Below are positions 6,187 through 21,987 of a stretch of 27,776 nucleotides of DNA, one piece after another (position 1 is the first letter of the stretch; each line of letters starts with the position of its first letter). The DNA comes from a virus (Duplodnaviria; Caudoviricetes). A program made the position numbers and the translations under genes. Location: the IMG/VR virus record IMGVR_UViG_3300032219_001080, positions 1-27,776 of that record; one strand, 5' to 3'. The notes under the pieces are model-generated. The model did no database searches and had not been told where the DNA came from. It worked only from the letters and a program-made list of their open reading frames with translations.

Positions 6187-6201
6187 CGGACTGTAATACT
6201 A

Positions 6202-6528
6202 TCAGACTTGGGTGTAGTACAACTTCCACCCGTCACATGCGTCACTGTTCATGGCGCAATGCTTCGCTGTTTGCTCGGACTGAAAGCGCCGTGCCTTTGC
6301 TTTATCCAAAGACCAACAGTTATCTATTGTCTTGGCGGTGGCGATGTGTCTGCCTGTCCAGTATTTATCTATGGATGGGTGCTTGCCGCAACGCTTGACC
6401 ACCCACCTATAGGTAGGCAGGGGCTGTGTGACGGGGTGGTTCTTCCTGTCGTAAGGCTTGACCCTGCGATACAAGGTGAGTGCGATGTCCACGCTCGGAC
6501 GGTTGAGTATCCATTTACGCATTCTCAT
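6202..6528 (-). CDS. Hypothetical protein
   Basis: ORF; likely start MRMRKW at 6528 with GAGGAG SD. Confidence 0.65.
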   Translation of the reverse strand: MRMRKWILNRPSVDIALTLYRRVKPYDRKNHPVTQPLPTYRWVVKRCGKHPSIDKYWTGRHIATAKTIDNCWSLDKAKARRFQSEQTAKHCAMNSDACDGWKLYYTQV

Positions 6529-6676
6529 TAGCCTGCTCCTCGTACTGTAGCCAGTCATTGATTAGTACTGTCCAACCCCAACGCTGTCGCAGTATCTCTA
6601 CTACCTCGCGTGCTGTTGGTTCGTTGGTGATGTGATGGTTCACCCAGTCTTCTAACATTTCGCGTGTGGTTCTCAT
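6515..6676 (-). CDS. Hypothetical 53-aa protein (not in ORF track)
   Basis: MRTTREMLEDWVNHHITNEPTAREVVEILRQRWGWTVLINDWLQYEEQANENA; ATGA overlap with upstream gene. Confidence 0.65.
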   Translation of the reverse strand: MRTTREMLEDWVNHHITNEPTAREVVEILRQRWGWTVLINDWLQYEEQANENA

Positions 6677-7071
6677 TCCGATACCGCGTCTGTCAGTTCA
6701 GCAATCACTTCGTCTATCTGACGTTGCGTCAGGTGCTGTCCCAGTGTGTACGTCAGCCAGTTGATTGGGTCATGCAGTAGGTTTGCCTTCGCTTCAATCC
6801 AACTCTGCTGTTGCTCTGTCATGCGTGCGCTGTTGAGTACCTGCATTGCGTCAGTGAATTGTTTGGCAAGTTCATCTGTGCCTGCGATGTACTCGCCGTC
6901 ACCCCTGTAGTCGCTTTCCCAATGGTCGTAACTTTCGTTGTAGATAGTTCCGTATGGGAAGAAACCTTCCTCGCTTTCAATGTCGTGATACCACGTCTTG
7001 GTACTGCTGTCGTAAGTCACGATGTAGTAGTGCTGTCGTTCTATCTTTTGGGTTAGGTCGTACACTTTCAT
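6673..7071 (-). CDS. Hypothetical protein
   Basis: Likely start MKVYDL at 7071 (TAATG coupling, GGGAG SD). Confidence 0.7.
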   Translation of the reverse strand: MKVYDLTQKIERQHYYIVTYDSSTKTWYHDIESEEGFFPYGTIYNESYDHWESDYRGDGEYIAGTDELAKQFTDAMQVLNSARMTEQQQSWIEAKANLLHDPINWLTYTLGQHLTQRQIDEVIAELTDAVSE

Positions 7072-7256
7072 TACGCTGTCTCCCATGCTTCTGCTTCGTT
7101 GGCATGAAAGTCCATGTCCATGCCATGTTGGTCTTGTAGGAACGCTGTTGCGTTTGCTATCGCTTGGTCTTCTTCTTCTGCTTGGACGTGTGTGGTTAGT
7201 GTGAAGTAATTTCCCACGAACTGTACTGTCCATGTAGTTTCTGTCGCGACACTCAT
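7071..7256 (-). CDS. Hypothetical protein
   Basis: AAGGAG SD, ATGA coupling. Confidence 0.7.
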   Translation of the reverse strand: MSVATETTWTVQFVGNYFTLTTHVQAEEEDQAIANATAFLQDQHGMDMDFHANEAEAWETA

Positions 7257-7396
7257 TGCGCTGTCTCCTTCTTGGAATTCTCATAGCGAACCATGAGCAT
7301 TTGTTGATATAACCTGTTCAATTCTTTTTTATTTTTAGGTTCGGCAAAACCTGCCTCGGTTAGTTCCCTTCTAATTGTTTGCTCAATGATGCTCAT
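7253..7396 (-). CDS. Hypothetical 47-aa protein (not in ORF track)
   Basis: MSIIEQTIRRELTEAGFAEPKNKKELNRLYQQMLMVRYENSKKETAQ; AAGGAG SD, ATGA coupling at both ends. Confidence 0.7.
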   Translation of the reverse strand: MSIIEQTIRRELTEAGFAEPKNKKELNRLYQQMLMVRYENSKKETAQ

Positions 7397-7575
7397 TGCG
7401 CTGTCTCCTTGTCCTTCATGCCCTGCTCAATGAGGAACTGGGCTTGGTTCAGTTGCTCTAACATTCCGAACGTTTGCATTGGGCGTAGTTCTCCCTGTCT
7501 TACGCCCTCACTTAGTAAGAAACGTAAGTCCTCAAACCCTCGGATTATTTCTGCTCGGATAGTTTCCTTAGTCAT
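7393..7575 (-). CDS. Hypothetical protein
   Basis: AAGGAG SD; helical 60-aa ORF. Confidence 0.7.
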   Translation of the reverse strand: MTKETIRAEIIRGFEDLRFLLSEGVRQGELRPMQTFGMLEQLNQAQFLIEQGMKDKETAQ

Positions 7576-7924
7576 TGCTGTTCTCCTTGTTGTATCGTGC
7601 GATGTGTTCTTCAGTTATATAAGCGTTGGTGCTTAGTGGTTGTATGTCGTAGTCGGTGCAGTGTTCGTCATAACAAACATCGCATAGGCTTTTATCCCAG
7701 TCGTAAGTCCTGTCCGTGTTGTCCTCGTTGTTTCCGATTGGGAATAAGTTGTGCTCATCGTGGAAGTCCTCTGTCCCCAGTGGCTTGTCGCAGTAGTGAC
7801 ACCTCGCGCTGAATGTTTTACCCAGTAGTCGCCACTTGATTATGGATAGACGTTGCTGTCCCGTGCTCAAAGTAGACCAGTCGGTCATCTTGAATTCGTC
7901 CCATTGGTCACGTATTTTTTTCAT
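7568..7924 (-). CDS. Hypothetical Zn-finger protein
   Basis: CHYC and CDVC pairs; AAGGAG SD. Confidence 0.7.
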   Translation of the reverse strand: MKKIRDQWDEFKMTDWSTLSTGQQRLSIIKWRLLGKTFSARCHYCDKPLGTEDFHDEHNLFPIGNNEDNTDRTYDWDKSLCDVCYDEHCTDYDIQPLSTNAYITEEHIARYNKENSND

Positions 7925-8130
7925 TGCTGTTCTCCTTCGTTGTTTGTAAATATCCCTACTTTGTTTTTGTAATCATCTACCAATGTTTCGGTGAGATAGT
8001 CAATAAAACTTTCAACTTCTTTCAGGCAGTGTTGCTTTATTTCTTCCCAAACAAAATCGGTCAGTGAGCCATTAGCCCAAACCTCAAAATCTTCTTTGGT
8101 TATTGTGGTGAACTTGATTGCTTCATTCAT
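7921..8130 (-). CDS. Hypothetical protein
   Basis: Likely start MNEAIK at 8130 with AAGGAG SD. Confidence 0.7.
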   Translation of the reverse strand: MNEAIKFTTITKEDFEVWANGSLTDFVWEEIKQHCLKEVESFIDYLTETLVDDYKNKVGIFTNNEGEQQ

Positions 8131-8297
8131 TGCTGTTCTCCTTCGTTGATGTCTTCCCATGTGATGTTGTCAATTACTACTTCGTCATAACCTTTATCTG
8201 TCCAGTACTCTGCTATCTGTCGTGCTTCTTCAAGTGTGACGGTGTAATCAGTGACTTCTCCGCCACCCACCCACACTGTCCAAGTCTTTGTAGTCAT
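8127..8297 (-). CDS. Hypothetical 56-aa protein (not in ORF track)
   Basis: MTTKTWTVWVGGGEVTDYTVTLEEARQIAEYWTDKGYDEVVIDNITWEDINEGEQQ; AAGGAG SD, ATGA coupling. Confidence 0.72.
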   Translation of the reverse strand: MTTKTWTVWVGGGEVTDYTVTLEEARQIAEYWTDKGYDEVVIDNITWEDINEGEQQ

Positions 8298-8521
8298 CGC
8301 TGTGCTCCTTCGTTGTTGGTTATGTTTTCTACTGTCCTAATACTTGAATGCTGAAATGCGAAGTCATACTCGTGACCTTTCATTGGGTGCACGGCGGTGA
8401 ACTCCACTGTCTCATCGTCTATCGCTGTGATACAGCAGTCCTCGTACACAGTCCAGTCCGTGATGATGGTCACGATGTCGCTGTGTTCGTATGCGTGCCG
8501 TAGTAATTCTTTGTTGGTCAT
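8294..8521 (-). CDS. Hypothetical protein
   Basis: ORF; start 8521 (ATG) or 8533 (GTG). Confidence 0.65.
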   Translation of the reverse strand: MTNKELLRHAYEHSDIVTIITDWTVYEDCCITAIDDETVEFTAVHPMKGHEYDFAFQHSSIRTVENITNNEGAQR

Positions 8522-8526
8522 GGCAA

Positions 8527-8997
8527 TCACCAACTCGCCTGATAAGTCAAGTGCCAGTCTTCGTTTACTGTCTTAAGTACGCGAGATAGCAACTCAATCG
8601 TGTAGTCAATGTCATGCCAGTACCATTCGTCAATCTCGTCCGACCCGAAGAAGAACCCCGCTGTTGGTGAGAGTAGTTTCTCTGCCTTGCTTGGGTCTTG
8701 CTTGACTGTCTGACACAGGGTTAGTAGTTCCTGCAACTTGCCTCGGGTCACGTCATACTCTCGGCATTCATCTTCGCCATCTTGCACGTTGCGTACGAAC
8801 CAGCCATGAATTTGGTTAGCCTTTCTCCAGCAACCAACCTTGACCGCGAGGTTCATGCTTGGTATGTCCTCGCCCTCAACCATGTCATGCGCGTTCATGG
8901 TGCTGACGATTTGTGAGAACTGTTCTCGCTCCTCATCGCCTCGCCACTCGGCGCTCCCGATATTTTTATTTGCGTATAGATATTGGTCTAATCCCAC
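8527..8997 (-). CDS. Conserved phage hypothetical protein (MGLD...WRKAN family)
   Basis: MGLDQYL, WRKANQIHGWF, GFFFGS...Y, YQASW motifs; AAGGGAG SD. Confidence 0.8.
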   Translation of the reverse strand: MGLDQYLYANKNIGSAEWRGDEEREQFSQIVSTMNAHDMVEGEDIPSMNLAVKVGCWRKANQIHGWFVRNVQDGEDECREYDVTRGKLQELLTLCQTVKQDPSKAEKLLSPTAGFFFGSDEIDEWYWHDIDYTIELLSRVLKTVNEDWHLTYQASW

Positions 8998-9027
8998 TTC
9001 GTTCTCCCTTGTTTGTTGTTATGTTTT

Positions 9028-9056
9028 ACCGTAGTACAAATACTATGTGATGTCAA
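9028..9056 (-). promoter_or_regulatory. Sigma70/SigA-type promoter (leftward)
   Basis: Minus strand TTGACA-17 bp-TACGGT. Confidence 0.7.
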
Positions 9057-9080
9057 GTATTGTTTTATATCTTTACATCG

Positions 9081-9121
9081 TGGGTGTCGCGGACTTGAAC
9101 CGCGAGGTATGCCATTCACCC
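9081..9121 (-). ncRNA. Mini tRNA-like (T-loop) structured RNA element
   Basis: GGGUG-AAUGGCAUACC-UCGCGG UUCAAGU CCGCGA-CACCC-A. Confidence 0.6.
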
Positions 9122-9129
9122 TGCCTGCC

Positions 9130-9501
9130 TTACGACAGGACTTTTATGCTTGGCTCTACAAATTCGCGGACTCGGTTTACAAAGTACGTGACCCATTCAA
9201 CCTGCTGTTCGGTGAGCCCCAGCGTGTTGCCGTCTTCGTCTGTCCCGCCCGATATGACGACGTCGCCCACGATGTAGTCGGTGTGGACTCCGAACAATTT
9301 GTCCCAGAAGAACTGCCCGTATGGATTGTGTGCCTGTCCTAAGACCTTGCCTTCTTCGTTCAACCATAGAGTGAGACGTTCGCTTAGGTCTACTGCTTGC
9401 ACCAGCCCGCCAACGCCTTGCTGTAGTGTCGCGAGTGGTTCGGTGCTGAGGTCTAACTTAGTAACCCAGCCGTCCGTTGTTATCTTGAATGCGGTTTTCA
9501 T
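9130..9501 (-). CDS. DUF3846-like protein
   Basis: LQ..VGG.V..V, LWLNEEGK, N, IVGDVVI.G pattern; start MKTAF at 9501 with AGGAG SD. Confidence 0.75.
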   Translation of the reverse strand: MKTAFKITTDGWVTKLDLSTEPLATLQQGVGGLVQAVDLSERLTLWLNEEGKVLGQAHNPYGQFFWDKLFGVHTDYIVGDVVISGGTDEDGNTLGLTEQQVEWVTYFVNRVREFVEPSIKVLS

Positions 9502-9529
9502 TTCCGTTTCTCCTGTCTTACGTCCTGCA

Positions 9530-9886
9530 TTAGACATACATGTCCTCGTCTTCGTCCTCGTCTTCGGACTCATAGTCTGCGCCCTGCGGAATTAGGTTCG
9601 TGAACCCAGCGTTCGGGTCTTCCTCGTTGTGTTCAACTGCGTGAATAAATTTGAGCGAGCATGACTTGTCCCACCACTCGCGGAGCACCGCCAGCATTTG
9701 CCACTCGGTTCCCTTGTATGTGCGCGATGTCTTGCACCCCTCGGGGCTGTAGTTTTTGCGGAACCACTCGGCTTCTATCTCGTCCATTGCGATATATATT
9801 TTGTGACACCCGTCAAACGCGATGAGGTGAGCGTTTTCTAACGCTTCCTCTACGTCCCACCAGTACTCTTTCATTTCGGTATTCAT
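9530..9886 (-). CDS. Hypothetical protein with acidic tail
   Basis: FDGCHKIY motif, WW..SC.LKFI; AAGGGG SD. Confidence 0.75.
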   Translation of the reverse strand: MNTEMKEYWWDVEEALENAHLIAFDGCHKIYIAMDEIEAEWFRKNYSPEGCKTSRTYKGTEWQMLAVLREWWDKSCSLKFIHAVEHNEEDPNAGFTNLIPQGADYESEDEDEDEDMYV

Positions 9887-9931
9887 GTCTTACGTCCCCT
9901 TTTTGTTTTGTCTTCGGCGGAATTGCCTTGT

Positions 9932-9970
9932 CCCTAGTCCCGATTGAACGGCACGCCCGAGGCGCTAGGG
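9932..9970 (-). ncRNA. Three-way-junction RNA element with T-loop-like hairpin
   Basis: CCCUAG-CGCC UCG GGCG-UG-CCG UUCAAU CGG-GA-CUAGGG. Confidence 0.55.
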
Positions 9971-9987
9971 GTTACTGTCTTACGTCC

Positions 9988-10155
9988 TTACCTGTTCCAC
10001 CAGTAGTTGTTGATTTTGTTTCTCTGCATGTTCACTAGTTCGCGGGTGCTGTACCTCGGGCGGTTATCGTTCCACCGTTGGAGCATTGCCCCGAGAATGA
10101 ATGGTGACAACATGACAAGGGCGCCGAGCCCAGTCCACAGAAATTCTTTTATCAC
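9988..10155 (-). CDS. Small membrane protein, 55 aa (not in ORF track)
   Basis: MIKEFLWTGLGALVMLSPFILGAMLQRWNDNRPRYSTRELVNMQRNKINNYWWNR; GTGA coupling, GGAG SD. Confidence 0.65.
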   Translation of the reverse strand: MIKEFLWTGLGALVMLSPFILGAMLQRWNDNRPRYSTRELVNMQRNKINNYWWNR

Positions 10156-10349
10156 TTCGCGTCTCCGTTCTTTTGGTTCAGTATGTTTTGTGCGTTGCTG
10201 AATAACTCTCGCGGGCTCCCGCCAATTTCCCGACAGATAGCCTGTATTCTGTCTGTCGCTGTGTATGCTTGCATTTTGTTACACTCCCCGCCCAGAAGAT
10301 AGAAGGCAAGTTCTAACGCCTCGGCTCCGAGTTGCTCTACTGTTTTCAT
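10152..10349 (-). CDS. Hypothetical protein
   Basis: Likely start MKTVEQ at 10349, GGGGAG SD, ATGA coupling. Confidence 0.65.
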   Translation of the reverse strand: MKTVEQLGAEALELAFYLLGGECNKMQAYTATDRIQAICREIGGSPRELFSNAQNILNQKNGDAK

Positions 10350-10636
10350 GCTGAGTACTCCCCCGCACATACTGCCACTGCCCCGTCCGTGATAGTTGAG
10401 ACAACCCAGTGTCCGCCCCAGTTGGCACGGCGTAGGTATTCCAGCACTGCTTGCTCGTACTGCTCGGGCATGTCTAGCGCGTAGTTGCGGGCTACTGTAA
10501 TCCGTTGCGGGTCTTTGCCGTACGTGTTGCCCTCGTAGCGGGCGACTGTAATTCGTCCGCTATTTGGTAGGTACTTCGCGCGGAGTGTCACGCGGTGACT
10601 GCTCCTAACGAAACTAGTTCTCGGTATTGTTTGCAT
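10346..10636 (-). CDS. Hypothetical protein
   Basis: Likely start MQTIPR at 10636 with AGGGG SD. Confidence 0.7.
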   Translation of the reverse strand: MQTIPRTSFVRSSHRVTLRAKYLPNSGRITVARYEGNTYGKDPQRITVARNYALDMPEQYEQAVLEYLRRANWGGHWVVSTITDGAVAVCAGEYSA

Positions 10637-10664
10637 GTTTCCCCTTTGTTTGTTGGTGTATTTG

Positions 10665-10698
10665 CTTATATCTATTTGTATCACACTTGGAAGGCAAG
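10665..10698 (-). promoter_or_regulatory. Putative leftward promoter, paralog of 11862-11896
   Basis: CTTGCCTTCCAAGTGTGATAC...TATAAG; same upstream block and 17-bp geometry as the promoter at 11862; the -10 lacks the usual final T. Confidence 0.45.
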
Positions 10699-10742
10699 CG
10701 CAAGTCATGCACCCGCTTTTCTTTGTGTAAGGGTTTCCCCTC

Positions 10743-10793
10743 GCGGGCGGGTGAGGTCTCGCTCCTCGTGGCGCCTGCGCGCTCCCGCCCCGC
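10743..10793 (-). ncRNA. Three-way-junction RNA element
   Basis: GCGGGGCGGG-A-GCGC GCAG GCGC-CAC-GAGG AGCGAGA CCUC-A-CCCGCCCGC, followed by GGG GAAA CCC. Confidence 0.55.
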
Positions 10794-10804
10794 TTGCCCC
10801 TGTC

Positions 10805-11593
10805 TTACGACACTGGAATGAATGGTGTCTCACAGCCGAGGCATAGCACGCCCTTGTCGTACACCTTGCGCGAGGCTCGCATTATGGAGCCACAAGAACA
10901 CACCGCCTTTATTTGGTTCTTGTCGCGCCCCTTTGGGGTGTCGCCCCCGCCGATAATAAACCCCCCGCCCGTACCCGTGCTCGTCCCTGTCTTACGTCCG
11001 TAACCCGAGGCAACGCGGATACTCTCCGAGATTTTTTCTATTTGGGCGCTCCACTTTTCGGCACACTCGCGGGTGACTGTTGTCTTCGTCCACCCCGCCC
11101 AATGGTTCGGCGCGTATTCTTCAATGAGGAGCCCGAAGAAATACTCGGCGGTAGTCTTGAATTTCTTATTGTGGCGTCCGTTGATGTCCACGTCCTGTAC
11201 CCCGCGCACAATGTTGATGGCGTGAGCCACTTCGTGGGCGACTGTCCCGAACACTTCGCGCCCGCCTCGCGCGAGGTTCTCGGCGCTTACCATTATTTCA
11301 TATTTGCCGAGGTACTTGGTCTCGGTTCCTAATCCCATTGCAACGGCGAAGGGCGCGTAAGCGTAGTCTTCGTCTATTGCCTCGTATGGTGTCGCCCATG
11401 TTGGGCGGGTCGTGATGTGTCCCCATGCGCGAGAATCGCGTTGCGAGATGAAGACAACAGGCGGGAGCACTACCGCGCCCCGCGTCATGTTGCGGACATG
11501 TATGGCTAAATCGTCATAGACGTCATGTAGTGCCGAGATGACGGGAGCAAGTGTGCCCTCGCCAGCCTCGGCGGTGAATGTTGATGTATTCAT
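10805..11593 (-). CDS. SprT-like zinc metalloprotease with C-terminal Zn ribbon
   Basis: HEVAH (HExxH), downstream H.K.F, C-terminal CSC...CLGC; AAGGGG SD. Confidence 0.8.
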   Translation of the reverse strand: MNTSTFTAEAGEGTLAPVISALHDVYDDLAIHVRNMTRGAVVLPPVVFISQRDSRAWGHITTRPTWATPYEAIDEDYAYAPFAVAMGLGTETKYLGKYEIMVSAENLARGGREVFGTVAHEVAHAINIVRGVQDVDINGRHNKKFKTTAEYFFGLLIEEYAPNHWAGWTKTTVTRECAEKWSAQIEKISESIRVASGYGRKTGTSTGTGGGFIIGGGDTPKGRDKNQIKAVCSCGSIMRASRKVYDKGVLCLGCETPFIPVS

Positions 11594-11611
11594 GTATTCC
11601 CCTTTGTTGTG

Positions 11612-11674
11612 TGTCTGACCTCGTCAGTGCCCGCATTACGGACAGACCCCCGAAGGGGTTTCGGTCTTAGGACA
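11612..11674 (-). ncRNA. Type II hammerhead ribozyme
   Basis: UGUC-CUAA-GACC-GAAA-CCCC UUCG GGGG-UC^-UGUCCG UAAUG CGGGCA-CUGACGA-GGUC-A-GACA; complete catalytic core, all three stems pair. Confidence 0.93.
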
Positions 11675-11816
11675 GTTGTCCGAGCAAGCCCGCTACATCG
11701 TTCAACCAACGAGACTGAAAGCCGTAACTGTCGTCTAGGTTTTCTTGCCCCGCCATCTCTCGCAATTTCTCGGCAAGCGCCTCGGCTAGCCTCTTCGTCT
11801 CTTTGTCTACGAACAT
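11667..11816 (-). CDS. Hypothetical 49-aa protein, first gene of leftward operon (not in ORF track)
   Basis: AAAGGGG SD; MFVDKETKRLAEALAEKLREMAGQENLDDSYGFQSRWLNDVAGLLGQLS. Confidence 0.72.
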   Translation of the reverse strand: MFVDKETKRLAEALAEKLREMAGQENLDDSYGFQSRWLNDVAGLLGQLS

Positions 11817-11823
11817 CTGTTCG
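11810..11823. promoter_or_regulatory. LexA (SOS) box
   Basis: CGAAC-ATCT-GTTCG, matches the Gram-positive/actinobacterial CGAAC-N4-GTTCG consensus; overlaps start codon. Confidence 0.8.
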
Positions 11824-11861
11824 CCCCTTTCGTAAGTCTCGGGCTAATTCCCGATGAGACA

Positions 11862-11896
11862 AGTATACGCATGGGTATGACACATGGAAAGGCAAG
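11862..11896 (-). promoter_or_regulatory. Main leftward (early) promoter
   Basis: TTTCCA-17 bp-TATACT; 5' leader hairpin UCGGG AAUUAG CCCGA. Confidence 0.65.
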
Positions 11897-11942
11897 CAAG
11901 CCATAAGACAGGCAAAAGCCCGCACAGAATGAGGCTCCGAAC

Positions 11943-11960
11943 ATTGTAACCAAATTGTAA
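11943..11960. promoter_or_regulatory. 11-bp-period direct repeat (OmpR/PhoB-family, GlnR/MtrA-like site)
   Basis: ATTGTAA at 11943 and 11954; GTAAC-N6-GTAAT. Confidence 0.35.
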
Positions 11961-11984
11961 TACAAATCTAGGGAGACGAAGAAG

Positions 11985-12004
11985 AAAAGTTAGGCGCACC
12001 TAAC
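11985..12004. promoter_or_regulatory. IdeR/DtxR-like box
   Basis: AAAAGTTAGGCGCACCTAA versus consensus TTAGGTTAGGCTAACCTAA; perfect GTTAGG-N4-CCTAAC inverted repeat. Confidence 0.55.
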
Positions 12005-12008
12005 AAAA

Positions 12009-12103
12009 CGAACGTATGTTCGCAATGCCACGCCGAGACAACACACAGCCGAACAAGTGTTCGCAAGGGAGACGACACAGCGCCGAGGGTGAACAAGTGT
12101 TCG
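12009..12103. promoter_or_regulatory. Three tandem LexA (SOS) boxes
   Basis: CGAACGTATGTTCG (12009), CGAACAAGTGTTCG (12050), TGAACAAGTGTTCG (12090); 41 and 40 bp apart. Confidence 0.8.
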
Positions 12104-12114
12104 CCATGCCACCA

Positions 12115-16727: not shown

Positions 16728-17131
16728 TGGCAAAGCAATATCCGAATCGTTCAGACCTTCGTAACCCTGCAAAAAAAATTGCAGCAAAAGCAGCACCAGG
16801 TCAAACCTATGGTGAAGCAGGAAAACAAATGGCTGCACAACGCGCAGTACCAATGGCAGCCCCACCAACAGATGTAGCACCAATCGCTACACCACAACAA
16901 CCACGTGTAGCACCAGGTTCAATGGGTCCACTTAACCGCCCCACAGAACGCCCTAACGAACCGCTTACTGCTGGCGCACCATTTGGACCAGGACGCACAC
17001 AACAACTAGGTGGATACATCGGACCACGAAACAACGACCCAATTCTTGACGAATTACGCGCACTTTACGCAACATTCCCAAGTGATGAACTAGCAGACAT
17101 GTTGGACTCTTACATCCGTGAAGGATACTAA
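16727..17131 (+). CDS. Pro/Ala-rich virion-module hypothetical protein
   Basis: TAATG coupling; PTERPNEPLTAG motif. Confidence 0.7.
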   Translation: MAKQYPNRSDLRNPAKKIAAKAAPGQTYGEAGKQMAAQRAVPMAAPPTDVAPIATPQQPRVAPGSMGPLNRPTERPNEPLTAGAPFGPGRTQQLGGYIGPRNNDPILDELRALYATFPSDELADMLDSYIREGY

Positions 17132-20100
17132 TGGCATTATTTGGTGCATTCGACCCAGTCGACGAAGAAAACAACGATAAAGACGCACAAGCCAATATCG
17201 CGGCACAAAAAAAGTTTGAAACACTTGTTACACCACAACAAGCCCAAGCCGTCGCACAAATCTATCGTCAATCACCGTGGGTACCACCACGAGTAATTCT
17301 CGACCTTGCAAAAGCCAACGCATCACAACAAGCAATCGACACAGTATCTAATGTTGCTGGCAAACAATATGTAATGACCAACACCCCACAAAAGAAAGAT
17401 GAGGGCAGTTGGTTCCAACGCAATGTTTATGGTAAAGCAAAAGCATTGTCACGTTGGACTTTCGCCGCATTACAGTTCACCCCAGACCTTGCACAAAACG
17501 CTGCATCACAACTGTTCTCAGGAAATGACCCAGCAGGCGTAGACGGATGGTTTGCGTCCACACAGTTAGGTCAGATGGCTGGAAGTAAAGATGCTGGACA
17601 AGGATTCTTTTTCGGTGGCGAAGCACAAAAAACGCAAGCACAAAAAGCACGAGAGTTTCGTGGAACAATCAACGGTCACGCATGGACTATTGGTCGTGGT
17701 GCAGCAGACTTAGTGTTCACCCCTGGCTCAAAAGAATACTCACTACTATCAGGCTTCCTTGACGCTGGCGTAAACATCTTTGCCGACCCAACGCTCTATG
17801 CAGGTCAAGCACTCAAAGCAGCCAAGACAGGTGCATATGCCGATGACGTTATTAAGGGTTTGCCAGGCACACGAAAAATATCTCAAGCGCTAGGTAAGCA
17901 ACTCGTTGAACGTGGCGTTGTTGAAACAGACAAAATACCTGAAATCAGCAAAGCAGCAGGTGAAGCCGCTGCACGAATCGCTCGCGGCGAAGCAGGCTTA
18001 GACGCCAAAGAAAGCATTGCATTCGTTGAATCAAAGTTCTATACATGGTTTGACAAGAACACACGTGCAGGACGCATGGCAGACCGCCTTGCTGGACACG
18101 CCAAAGTAGCAACAGACAACATCACCACCCGCGGCTTATCAGGTGCTGACGCAGACAACCAGTATGGTCGTGCCGCAGCAAAAATCCTCGAAGACTTCGG
18201 TGACAGAATCGACCCAGAAGTAGCAATGCGTCTAGCCCGAGCAGACTCGCCAGACAAAATCAAAGCAATCATCGGTGAAGCAGCAGCAGTACTCGGAAAA
18301 GAAAAAGGAGCAGGCAGACTTCCAGCGTCAATCTCTGGAGTCACTGGCACAGGTGCAACATTCGCTGCACGCCAATACGCGCGCGAACGAGTACCTCTAT
18401 ACCGTTCAATTCGCAACAGCCGATGGTGGTCAGAAATACCAGCACAACAAGCCATCATCAACGGCACGGGCATGGAACGCTCCAAATCAATTGCGACCTA
18501 CCGCCAATGGATGAAGGGTCTAAAGATTGACCAACAGTTACCAGAAACTTATGAAAAGTTTTTAGGTAAAGCAATGAACACGTTTAGTTTGGAAAATACT
18601 GCTGCTCGCCGTGAATCAGTAGACAAACTATACGACGAGTTTCTTGACATAATTACCGAACATGCTGGCGGAGATAAAGCAGTAGCAAAAAAAGCAGTAG
18701 ACAGCATACGTGCAGATAAAGCAAAACTACGCACATATAGTGTTGACCAGAACGGCAAACTTGATGACGGTGGAATGATTCAATTCCTTCGTGATTACAC
18801 AGACCCAAAAGAATTTGCACAATTTGACTCACTACAACTCGAACAACTAAAACTGCAAGGCGCAAGTGCGCTCAACGAAATGATTGAAAACGTGCAGGTT
18901 CTCCCTGACTACCGAAAGTTCCGTGCATTAACTGGAGCCAAAATCGGTGGAAACAAAGTTTTCCGTCATGTCCTTCGCACTAAAGATGGTCGCGAGCGCG
19001 CACTTATCGCCGCCGCAGAACAACTCCAGCAAGAAGTCTGGAAGCCAATGGTTCTTGCCACAGGCGGATACATCGTACGAAACATGATTGACTCACACAT
19101 TCGTATCGGCGCACGAGGTTACGAATCATTCTTTACACACCCATTTCGCACCATTCAAACCGTTATGGGACGCAGATACGTTGGACCACTCACGGGGAAA
19201 ATGGACCCAACTGGAGTCAACGTTGCAACCACCTTCGAAGAAGCATTGGAAGATGGCGCTGGAGAAATGAACGCAATTTTTGATGGGTACAAAAACGCGG
19301 TACAGCGTTCTGTATACCAGCATCTTCAAGACCCTGCGTCCTTCAACGAATCAATGTTCAGGAGTGAACAATTCGCAACAGTTTCAAGACAAGTAAATCC
19401 AGAAGGTCACGTCACTGGATATGTAGACAACTTGGGTCAAATTGCCACGGACCCAATTCTTTCACGTATTGCTTCTTTCTGGAATCTCCCACAACAAGAA
19501 CGCTTAGAAAGAACTATCCAATGGTTCAACACCACTACAGATGGTAAAGAGGCTAAGAAAATAATTATTGACAATTTCCGCAACGGCGTCAAAGTTACAG
19601 ACGACAGTGGTAATCCATATTTTCAGTCTTTTAAGTCCACTGGCGATGACGCAATCCTTATTGGCTGGGTAGACCGTTTGTCGACAGCAAAGTTATCAAC
19701 CATTCTCCGTGGTTCCTCGCCAACAGGTGTAGTCGACGAAGACCTAAGATTCATTGTTGCATTTGACCGTGTTCCACTCATGGAAAACCTTAAAGTTGGT
19801 GGAGAATTTACAGACGAAGCAGTCATTGCGCGACGTGTAGAACAAACACTTGATTCCGTAACCTATGCCGCTGACGAAGCAAACAACCCACGTGGCATTG
19901 GTGGATTGGTAAACCTTCCAGATGACCGTCAAGGTGTAATTGTTGGTATCAAAACCAACATGATTGAAGACCCATTTAACCCTGGAACGATGATTAACCG
20001 TGAAGTTGCAGAAATCCAACCAGTAGCACCTGGTCGCGCTTTCACCAAAAAAGAAAAAGACCCATCACTTTTGGGTACTGAAGCACTCCGTGAACATCTC

Positions 20101-21987
20101 AATTACAAAGGCGCAAAAAATCAACTTGCTGAAGATGTCAAAGTTGCTGTCCGTGTAGAAAAAGGCAAAACAGTTGGCTTAGACAAAATCTCGCAAGCAT
20201 TAGACACGGGCGTTAAGTGGTTCTTTAACAGTCTTGTTGGACGCTCAACGCAGTCGCTTGAACGCTCACCGTTGTATCGTCAAGCCTTCTATAAGGAAGT
20301 TGGTGACAAAGCATTTTTGCTTTCTCCAGAAGAACAAACAACATTGCAAGCCAACATTACCCGTTATGTCGACGAACTTAACGCAGACCTTGCACGTGAA
20401 GGCAAACGCGCCCGCCTAACCGTAGAACAATACGTTGGAAACAAAAAGAACTACGACGCAATCTTTAACAAACCAGCAACAGGTGACGCAACAATTGCTG
20501 AACTAGAAGAATTTGCATCTTCAATTGCTGTACAAGAACTACAAGACATCTTGTATAACGCTCAAAGCAAATCTAACGTTGAAGACATGCTCCGTGTAGT
20601 AGCACCATTTGCTACGGCATTCCGTGAAACCCTCGGCAAATACGTTGGCTACCTCATCGAAGACCCATCGCGAGTACGCAAAACCCAACTTGCATACAAT
20701 GCTGTGAACTACAACAGCGACGACCCAGACAACTTTGGTGCAGGTTGGTTTGACAAAGACGCGGTAAGCGGCAAACACGTATTCAACTTCCCAATCGGAG
20801 GCTGGGCAGGACCACTCCTTCAGTTCCCTGTACGTGGCGCATTCCAAGTATTGAGTCTCCCAGGTGTAGGTCCAGTAGCCCAAATCGCTGCCAGCAACAT
20901 CATCCCAGACACCCCACGACTCGACTTCGTACGCAGCATGGTTCTCCCATACGGCAAACAAGGCATTTCATCGTTCGCACCACAATGGGCGCGCCGTGGT
21001 ATCGAAGCAATCAAAGCCGACACCACCAATATGGAAACCATCTACGGCAACACCTACGGTGAAACAGTCAAATACCTTGCATCATCAGGCGAATACGACC
21101 TAAATGACCCTAATGACACAGCCAAACTATATGCAGATGCCAAAGGCAAAGCCCGAATCCTCGCAGGCTTGCGCGCCCTGTTTCAATTCACTGGACCAGC
21201 ATCACCACAAATCGATTTCAGGCTAGAAACCGACGGCGGTGACATTGTCGCATCAGCAATCTCCCAAGAGTTCTACAAGTTCCAAACCGAAAACCCAGAC
21301 AATGCCGTACAACGCTTCATCGAAACCTTCGGCGAAGATGCATTTATCTACCTCGGTCATAAGACAGAACCAATCGCAGGTGGCTTGGAAGCATCAGAAG
21401 CATTCGGTGACTGGCAACGCAATAACGGTGGATTGTTTGAACAATACAAACAGTCAGCAGGCTACTTCGCCCCAGGTGGTGACGACTTCTCGTTTGAAAC
21501 ATGGAACCGTCAAATCCAAAAAGGACAACGCCGCCGACTCTCAGCCCCAGAAATGGTTGCCGCAGCCCAATACCGTTTAGGTGCAGCCGTCTACCGTTCA
21601 AAGCGCAACCAGTTAGGCGACAGAATCAGCAGCGAACAGCGTGACTGGCTCAGCCAATGGCGTGTCTATTTGAACAGCCAATACCCTGGATTCCCTGCAA
21701 AAGCGAACTTCAACCCAGGCGAATTTGACTCATTCATTGGCGAACTCAAACAAGCCGTACAAGATGACCGTCTGGTAAATAACGAAGTAGCACAAGCAGT
21801 CAAGGAATACATCGCTGCTCGTGACAAAGCGCTTGCTCAGGCTGGTGCAGCGAACCTGAAGTCGTTGGATTCTGTTCGCGCAGAACCTTTGCGTGACTGG
21901 TTGAGTAGTATTGCACAGGTGCTTATTCAGAGAACCCCAGAATTCTCCCGAATTTTTGAAGATAAACTTGCAGCAGAGGTAGACTAA
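17131..21987 (+). CDS. Very large (1618 aa) probable internal virion/ejection protein
   Basis: Size, helical Ala-rich composition, position in structural operon; no catalytic motif recognised. Confidence 0.55.
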   Translation: MALFGAFDPVDEENNDKDAQANIAAQKKFETLVTPQQAQAVAQIYRQSPWVPPRVILDLAKANASQQAIDTVSNVAGKQYVMTNTPQKKDEGSWFQRNVYGKAKALSRWTFAALQFTPDLAQNAASQLFSGNDPAGVDGWFASTQLGQMAGSKDAGQGFFFGGEAQKTQAQKAREFRGTINGHAWTIGRGAADLVFTPGSKEYSLLSGFLDAGVNIFADPTLYAGQALKAAKTGAYADDVIKGLPGTRKISQALGKQLVERGVVETDKIPEISKAAGEAAARIARGEAGLDAKESIAFVESKFYTWFDKNTRAGRMADRLAGHAKVATDNITTRGLSGADADNQYGRAAAKILEDFGDRIDPEVAMRLARADSPDKIKAIIGEAAAVLGKEKGAGRLPASISGVTGTGATFAARQYARERVPLYRSIRNSRWWSEIPAQQAIINGTGMERSKSIATYRQWMKGLKIDQQLPETYEKFLGKAMNTFSLENTAARRESVDKLYDEFLDIITEHAGGDKAVAKKAVDSIRADKAKLRTYSVDQNGKLDDGGMIQFLRDYTDPKEFAQFDSLQLEQLKLQGASALNEMIENVQVLPDYRKFRALTGAKIGGNKVFRHVLRTKDGRERALIAAAEQLQQEVWKPMVLATGGYIVRNMIDSHIRIGARGYESFFTHPFRTIQTVMGRRYVGPLTGKMDPTGVNVATTFEEALEDGAGEMNAIFDGYKNAVQRSVYQHLQDPASFNESMFRSEQFATVSRQVNPEGHVTGYVDNLGQIATDPILSRIASFWNLPQQERLERTIQWFNTTTDGKEAKKIIIDNFRNGVKVTDDSGNPYFQSFKSTGDDAILIGWVDRLSTAKLSTILRGSSPTGVVDEDLRFIVAFDRVPLMENLKVGGEFTDEAVIARRVEQTLDSVTYAADEANNPRGIGGLVNLPDDRQGVIVGIKTNMIEDPFNPGTMINREVAEIQPVAPGRAFTKKEKDPSLLGTEALREHLNYKGAKNQLAEDVKVAVRVEKGKTVGLDKISQALDTGVKWFFNSLVGRSTQSLERSPLYRQAFYKEVGDKAFLLSPEEQTTLQANITRYVDELNADLAREGKRARLTVEQYVGNKKNYDAIFNKPATGDATIAELEEFASSIAVQELQDILYNAQSKSNVEDMLRVVAPFATAFRETLGKYVGYLIEDPSRVRKTQLAYNAVNYNSDDPDNFGAGWFDKDAVSGKHVFNFPIGGWAGPLLQFPVRGAFQVLSLPGVGPVAQIAASNIIPDTPRLDFVRSMVLPYGKQGISSFAPQWARRGIEAIKADTTNMETIYGNTYGETVKYLASSGEYDLNDPNDTAKLYADAKGKARILAGLRALFQFTGPASPQIDFRLETDGGDIVASAISQEFYKFQTENPDNAVQRFIETFGEDAFIYLGHKTEPIAGGLEASEAFGDWQRNNGGLFEQYKQSAGYFAPGGDDFSFETWNRQIQKGQRRRLSAPEMVAAAQYRLGAAVYRSKRNQLGDRISSEQRDWLSQWRVYLNSQYPGFPAKANFNPGEFDSFIGELKQAVQDDRLVNNEVAQAVKEYIAARDKALAQAGAANLKSLDSVRAEPLRDWLSSIAQVLIQRTPEFSRIFEDKLAAEVD

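Follow-up and report, generated by a model that had tools for sequence, protein, structure and literature searches.

Type II hammerhead ribozymes have been found flanking prophage genes, where they cleave and were proposed to split polycistronic RNA (Perreault et al. 2011, PMC3088659). Cleavage of related type II hammerheads is documented both in vitro and in vivo (PMC3088659, PMC8782182). Since the work of Perreault et al. (2011), hammerheads between early genes of phages are an already known arrangement, and the role of self-cleaving ribozymes in bacteria and phages was called open in reviews of 2017 and 2019 (PMC6765202). The locus analysed here, a compact motif filling the gap between two early genes of a Caudoviricetes phage, raises the question of what such an element contributes to the gene behind it. 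The window, i.e. the whole stretch of DNA under analysis, comprises 27,776 nt (IMG/VR record IMGVR_UViG_3300032219_001080).

Pfam and PHROG annotation places terminase, portal and major capsid genes on the right side of the window, while RecE-like, annealing, RusA, SSB and WhiB genes lie on its left side and the small genes form a leftward run (about 6200-11816). Gene size, position and promoter-like sites suggest that this leftward region is expressed early. The right side also encodes a 1618-aa virion-module protein (17131-21987, plus strand) without match in Pfam or PHROG. The gene following the motif carries an HExxH motif and resembles SprT-like proteins only weakly, its PF10263 score of 19.9 bits (E=7e-4) lying under the Pfam cut-off of 25.6 bits. 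In total, 87 homologues were found, H120, E121 and H124 being invariant and HExxH being invariant in 29 homologues; no relative occurred in a collection of genome contigs. Its only named match is Pas43 of Actinoplanes phage phiAsp2 (29% identity), which together with the WhiB gene suggests an actinobacterial host. The DNA showed no match to named phages, and the phiAsp2 Pas43 locus gave no match with the hammerhead descriptor. An A/C-rich linker precedes the Shine-Dalgarno-like AAAGGGG of the SprT-like gene.

The 49-aa ORF upstream of the motif has no match in Pfam, PHROG or NCBIfam, and homologues of 43-71% identity occur on three other contigs. Contigs of two sequencing runs join 11608 to 12045 and thus represent a natural allele lacking both the ORF and the ribozyme. 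A contig of run X1 covers the stretch with 0 differences; as it is possibly the source of the window DNA, it does not count as independent support. Palindromes of the form CGAAC-N4-GTTCG are located at 11810-11823, 12009-12022, 12050-12063 and about 12091-12104, one of them overlapping the start codon of the 49-aa ORF, and they are present in relatives, too. They resemble the actinobacterial LexA box, and early expression may be tied to the host SOS response. Another DNA word, CGTAAGAC(A), is repeated on the minus strand at 10996, 10809, 9984, 9894, 9522, 7504 and 4410, mostly at gene ends of the leftward region. In relatives its copies often adjoin elements, and a near copy at the end of the 49-aa ORF overlaps the 5' edge of the ribozyme. 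Possibly, these repeats are a protein-binding or recombination site.

Table 1 Features of the locus, with the basis on which each was assigned
Feature	Position	Strand	Basis
Sigma70-type promoter-like site TTTCCA-17-TATACT before the 49-aa ORF	11862..11890	-	consensus match only
49-aa upstream ORF	11667..11816	-	homologues in L135, L045, L006
Predicted hairpin GGAC-AACU-GUCC at the end of the upstream ORF	11670..11681	-	predicted fold
Type II hammerhead ribozyme motif	11617..11667	-	sequence; RF02276, 29.3 bits; descriptor and shuffles; relatives
Putative contact base A, directly 5' of stem II and last in the upstream UAA stop	11667	-	covariation, 136 relatives
Stem II strand GACC	11666-63	-	sequence
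GAAA	11662-59	-	sequence
Stem III CCCC(UUCG)GGGG	11658-47	-	sequence
U16.1-C17	11646-45	-	sequence
Predicted cleavage site, after C17 in the GUC triplet	11644..11645	-	hammerhead numbering on sequence
Stem I UGUCCG/CGGGCA, 6 bp	11644-39/11633-28	-	sequence
U1.7, first base of loop I	11638	-	U in 132/140; covaries with contact A
Core CUGACGA	11627-21	-	sequence
Stem II strand GGUC	11620-17	-	sequence
Predicted core-sequestering hairpin CUGAC-GAG-GUCAG (CUGAC 11627-23, GUCAG 11619-15)	11615..11627	-	folds; covariation; 35/140
Shine-Dalgarno-like AAAGGGG of the SprT-like gene	11599..11605	-	sequence; kept in relatives
HExxH-containing gene of 262 aa, weakly SprT-like (AUG at 11593)	10805..11593	-	PF10263, E=7e-4; phrog_6361
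tRNA-top-half-like element between two early genes	9932..9970	-	only strict-descriptor match in the window; fold

An initial annotation made from the letters of the window alone had proposed a complete type II hammerhead at this place, and its sequence, strand and coordinates proved exact. All positions of the hammerhead core (C3 U4 G5 A6 N7 G8 A9, G12 A13 A14, A15.1-U16.1, H17) are present as CUGACGA, GAAA and UC. The permutation is that of type II, stem II being open and stems I and III being closed by loops. Stems I, II and III comprise 6, 4 and 4 (plus A-U) bp with intact core-adjacent pairs, and loop I reads UAAUG. The hammerhead descriptor gave 0 matches on 300 dinucleotide shuffles of the window and no other hammerhead of types I-III elsewhere in it. 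A search with the Rfam hammerhead models, which had been suggested as a check, yielded a full-length alignment to RF02276 (Hammerhead_II) covering all core positions, although its 29.3 bits (E=0.0017 in a 1.5-kb search) stay below the gathering score of 37; at gathering, Rfam returned nothing for the whole window or for 10 relative loci. In contrast to RF02276, the window has a short loop I without pseudoknot partner. Every sequence feature tested identifies the element as a type II hammerhead; it misses the RF02276 cut-off, has no counterpart of that model's pseudoknot and, as a hammerhead, is ordinary. Hammerhead self-cleavage yields a 2',3'-cyclic phosphate and a 5'-OH. The predicted cut and a structured 5'-OH end 51 nt ahead of the SprT-like AUG, both already put forward in the initial annotation, follow from the sequence and this established chemistry.

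For comparison, relatives were gathered from IMG/VR by pattern scans, and all counts stand without correction for relatedness or tree. A first scan gave 73 loci; merged with earlier loci, these amount to 104 distinct type II motifs (the pattern-biased set), 41 of which the pattern had not selected. A second pattern, in which only the core and a 17-nt stem-loop I were fixed, hit 135 loci in 3/64 parts of the collection, extrapolating to about 2700 stretches in IMG/VR; the unbiased set consists of 140 distinct motifs from 161 matches passing a structure filter. A third scan, specifying TCAG in the tail only and leaving N7 and its partner free to vary, recovered 126 loci from 10/64 parts, corresponding to about 800 stretches, with 125 distinct sequences among 133 matches. 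Throughout the relatives the core is invariant, while the stems vary with pairing kept. The unbiased set shares a 6-bp stem I with loop U-N-A-N-G, and stem II has 4 bp in 127 of the 140 motifs. Many contigs hold several hammerheads, one per small gene. In L022-L024 (one 67.6-kb contig), L073, L027, L033-L034 and L091, 5-10 type II hammerheads of this kind stand in dense arrays, each ahead of a small gene. Stem-loop I variants of 21-23 nt without tail hairpin occur in the same gene slot or in arrays (L128:3426 and L050). A 27-nt stretch spanning cut site, stem I and core is essentially identical between the window and L013-L020, an unrelated phage group differing in genes and style of ribosome-binding site, which implies either horizontal spread or strong convergence.

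The initial annotation had proposed an extension of stem II (UGUC/GACA) through a CUAA/A internal loop, suited to a tertiary contact with loop I. This extension was rejected: its pair probability is 0.0 in the predicted ensemble, it occurs in 1 of 19 hammerhead rows of the window's phage group (the window itself), and no enrichment is seen family-wide (46/140 against 41.5 expected, p=0.18; 40/104 against 33.1, p=0.056). The bases proposed for it are taken up by the predicted hairpin GGAC-AACU-GUCC (P 0.82-0.99), which lacks conservation in relatives. This hairpin had been annotated as a competitor of the outer stem and indeed occupies its bases in the predicted fold; it does not, however, compete with the ribozyme itself, as it overlaps neither stem II nor contact A. 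A pseudoknot of loop I with the 3' tail or the 5' flank was likewise not supported in either set of relatives. The loop UAAUG of the window has no complement in the 3' tail, the 3'-tail pseudoknot is found in 24/140 motifs of the unbiased set against 26.9 expected, and the pattern-biased set gives a weaker signal at one threshold only (35/104 against 25.5).

What the relatives point to instead is a single predicted reverse-Hoogsteen pair between U1.7 and the base directly 5' of stem II, which is A in 131/140 motifs. In the 136 motifs where stem I has all of its 6 bp and stem II all of its 4 bp, the two positions are A-U in 128, U-A in 7 and C-A in 1, with neither A-A nor U-U. The swap is distributed over 6 contigs and about three stem families, with L086 as one more in the wider set. 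These inverted contacts, with U before stem II and A at 1.7 (L322, L342, L366, L416, L419, L423, L086), mostly have the loop A-N-N-U-A and appear to form a small natural subclass. In the window the A is the last base of the UAA stop of the upstream ORF, so that the stop codon, annotated as internal loop of the extended stem II, would take part in the fold by a tertiary contact rather than by that loop. The contact A is structural and not a by-product of UAA or UGA, because it is kept where the stop ends further upstream (65/68; 51/52 in another tally).

A reverse-Hoogsteen pair of this kind joins the 5' U of loop 1 to the 3' A of loop 2 in viroid and satellite hammerheads, where double mutants are rescued (Dufour et al., PMC2632901), an experiment mirrored by the natural A-U/U-A swap. 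Shared with that loop-loop motif are a 6-bp stem I with a 5' U in loop I, a 4-bp stem II, an A 5' of its second strand and the opposite purine (A11616), whereas the window has no loop II and takes its A from the single-stranded upstream flank, i.e. the stop codon. Of the UNmYN/RNmA motif, the 5' U of loop I and the 3'-side A are present as U11638 and A11667; the penultimate pyrimidine (U11635) and the 5' purine (A11616) occur in the window as well, the purine being kept across the family (88/104) but not the pyrimidine (53/92). The pair also resembles that of the minimal hammerhead with a U1.7-A contact described by O'Rourke et al., as cited in PMC11875169. The contact as such is already known, since Perreault et al. 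tallied U..YN/R..A in type II motifs (Fig. S5, PMC3088659). Added here is its natural swap, which was not found in the openly accessible literature searched, including parts of Perreault et al.

The competing hairpin that matters was absent from the initial annotation. CUGAC of the core is complementary to GUCAG of the tail, and ViennaRNA assigns the resulting hairpin a probability of about 0.95 in uncut RNA and includes it in the minimum free energy fold of the 3' product. As tail hairpin and active fold are mutually exclusive, the former likely either fixes the 3' product after the cut or dampens the cutting itself. The complement is present in the tail of 35/140 motifs of the unbiased set (29 strictly Watson-Crick), compared to 1.1% per 14-nt background window, and in none of their 5' flanks. 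It recurs in 17 of 19 rows of the window's phage group (two rows being alternative readings of L135) and survives a changed stem II or a downstream shift (L112, L125). Where the partner of N7 lies beyond stem II, the pairs are C-G 30, U-A 26, U-G 3, C-A 1 and other 3 (p=1.6e-12); where it overlaps stem II, as in the window, they are C-G 22, U-A 20, U-G 11, C-A 4 and other 5 (p=3.5e-4). Summed up, U-G wobbles (14) exceed C-A mismatches (5), as for RNA pairing. This covariation persists within GC tertiles (p=0.036, 2e-6 and 5e-5) and also after reduction to a single row for each stem I hexamer (Watson-Crick in 71/89), one of five control positions also tracking N7 (p=6e-4). The spacing of the inverted repeat is variable (offsets 4-12), which, together with the tolerance of U-G, favours an RNA hairpin over a DNA operator. 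Reaching the active fold costs a computed median of 2.46 kcal/mol in motifs with the tail versus 1.06 kcal/mol in those without (p=0.001). In the window, the active fold lies 2.2-4.1 kcal/mol above the ensemble (P 0.001-0.03, in a ViennaRNA model without tertiary and core contacts), because the tail hairpin wins. With an overlap of the window's type, only 2 more bases have to be transcribed after stem II before the hairpin can form; hence, it may act before the cut. On the other hand, 105/140 relatives do without the tail motif, which is thus dispensable.

The gene slot upstream of the SprT homologues gives an indication of the purpose of the element. From the 87 loci, 9 partial or duplicate ones and 4 with too little upstream DNA were removed, and the remainder reduced to 58 distinct slots, of which 12 hold a hammerhead, 7 a tRNA-top-half-like element and 39 neither. 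An element is present in 0/20 slots without upstream ORF versus 19/38 slots with one, and this absence where no gene lies upstream points to transcript segmentation. Promoter-like sites precede 0/19 element slots versus 11/39 others (p=0.011), in a coarse scan that overlooks visible promoters. The genes upstream of the slot are varied and mostly unrelated. Of the 19 slots with an apparent upstream ORF and no detected element, 3-4 fold as missed tRNA-like junctions; in others the ORF call is likely spurious or the genes simply abut. Judged by these sequences, an element would be wanted for a gene located inside a transcript, and unrelated chemistries can apparently serve.

The tRNA-like element of the window combines an acceptor-like stem CCCUAG/CUAGGG, a small hairpin and a T-arm-like loop UUCAAU followed by ACA. 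Near-identical copies with covarying T-stems are found in L106-L112, L125 and L160, and a tRNA-like fold is present in L009/L010. The strict descriptor, tuned by eye on examples and missing some, matched 53 distinct sequences on the coding strand versus 5 on the other, while a loose descriptor did not discriminate the strands (122 versus 97). ARAGORN reported no tRNA in the whole window, Rfam at gathering returned nothing on the tRNA-like elements, and their MAFFT alignments were too poor for a covariance model. A second such element at 9121-9082 (minus strand), in which a canonical-looking T-arm (GGUUCAAGUCC) stacks on GGGUG/CACCC, is missed by the strict descriptor and has similar counterparts in L126-L128 and L179. 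Behind the SprT-like gene, a GC-rich structured spacer of ambiguous fold (10800-10715, minus strand) takes the place where relatives have tRNA-like elements.

Taken together, we somewhat favour a model in which the hammerhead self-cleaves during transcription with the help of the U1.7-A contact, whereupon the tail strips stem II and the SprT-like mRNA is released with a structured 5' end. Cleavage would split the early transcript into a piece carrying the 49-aa ORF and the SprT-like mRNA, docking of the A on U1.7 providing activity without the usual pseudoknot. After the cut, the two pieces would be held together by the 4-bp stem II only. GUCAG of the tail could then pair with CUGAC of the spent core, displacing the upstream piece and blocking re-ligation. 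The 5' end of the SprT-like mRNA would refold into two stacked hairpins, followed by the A/C-rich linker and the ribosome-binding site, so that an internal gene obtains a promoter-independent structured 5' end. In relatives, tRNA-like elements would do the same job, which becomes needless where the gene directly follows a promoter.

Several other readings of cleavage were considered. Cleavage as an on-switch of translation was rejected, since the cost of opening the ribosome-binding site falls from 4.5 to 3.4 kcal/mol, a computed gain of only about 1 kcal/mol. Protection by the 5'-OH, proposed earlier on the grounds that such an end is a poor RNase J/E substrate, is uncertain, as RNase J1 of B. 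subtilis breaks down the 5'-OH product of glmS (PMC11780869) and tRNA-like elements, the processing of which would leave no 5'-OH, fill the same slot. Unrelated chemistries in one slot favour segmentation or 5'-end formation over a 5'-OH-specific role. The fate of glmS could also mean that cleavage destabilises the downstream mRNA, or exposes the upstream piece to decay, and thereby causes a step-down in expression. While the lack of a predicted gain in access to the ribosome-binding site would fit, we consider this quite improbable, given that the predicted fold of the 3' product begins with paired bases at the 5' end and with two hairpins, and that the tail hairpin is under pairing selection. 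That gene cassettes carry the motif along in a decayed or neutral state, for instance as a recombination junction or DNA palindrome for which cleavage would be irrelevant, is highly improbable in our view. A score under the Rfam cut-off, the natural alleles missing the block of ORF and motif (joint 11608/12045) and the fact that CTGAYG..CRTCAG is also a DNA inverted repeat are in line with it, but the invariant core amid stems that vary with pairing kept, the covarying tertiary pair and the variable, U-G-tolerant inverted repeat argue against.

A rather unlikely alternative is that the tail hairpin serves as attenuator or switch, capturing the core before cleavage in some transcripts so that cut and uncut mRNA coexist, with a ribosome at the stop codon favouring the inactive fold. 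Such a ribosome would sit on contact A together with the 5' strand of stem II. The high predicted occupancy of the hairpin in uncut RNA and the greater cost of the active fold with the tail agree with this, and so does the position of the stop, which lies within -2 to +3 nt of stem II in 96 of the 136 motifs having an upstream frame of at least 35 codons (68/100 in another tally). Yet motifs with and without the tail do not differ in how often the stop is close (26/34 versus 70/102, p=0.52), the distance differs among close relatives, and the upstream ORFs are unrelated. Closeness of the stop may reflect genome compaction. The coupling of cleavage to termination of the upstream ORF considered in the initial annotation is weak for similar reasons: contact A is kept where the stop is distant, and in L006/L099, with a homologous upstream ORF, 13-14 nt separate stop and stem II.

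Compared to the clustered hammerheads of Perreault et al. (PMC3088659), co-transcriptional cleavage in the window would build on the same type II topology, canonical core and intergenic location among small phage genes, whereas the window motif lacks the pseudoknot between loop I and 3' tail and is a single copy. Judged by description, the type II hammerheads of Desulfovibrio vulgaris are comparable in lying beside phage-like genes; they cleave in vivo, and the sections of PMC8782182 compared assign no function to them. What is added beyond known type II hammerheads is the covarying core-pairing tail. Core-complementary tail hairpin and natural contact swap are both absent from the parts of PMC3088659 compared, and a search of its supplements for the core-pairing motif gave 0 matches, in PDF alignments that may carry gaps or be images. 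No description of such a tail was found in the open literature, a weak absence with most subscription papers outside.

The natural compensatory swap pins down which tertiary contact is used by type II hammerheads without pseudoknot, and the conserved hairpin, predicted to be self-inhibiting, is breakable by a 2-nt change. This 60-nt element is also relevant to ribozyme insulators in synthetic biology. A single gene slot that naturally occurs in three states, with a promoter, a hammerhead or a tRNA mimic, bears on the role of a processed 5' end in expression. It is conceivable, if unlikely, that the relatives constitute a subclass of type II hammerheads, widespread in phages and lacking the pseudoknot, with a built-in two-state switch, gated by translation, interchangeable with tRNA mimics and segmenting early operons. 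As the upstream stop supplies the contact base, a terminating ribosome could then tip the choice between the folds. If so, the two-state tail, predicted for about 800 of the roughly 2700 IMG/VR stretches that match, would render cleavage one-way or set the fraction of transcripts that is cut.
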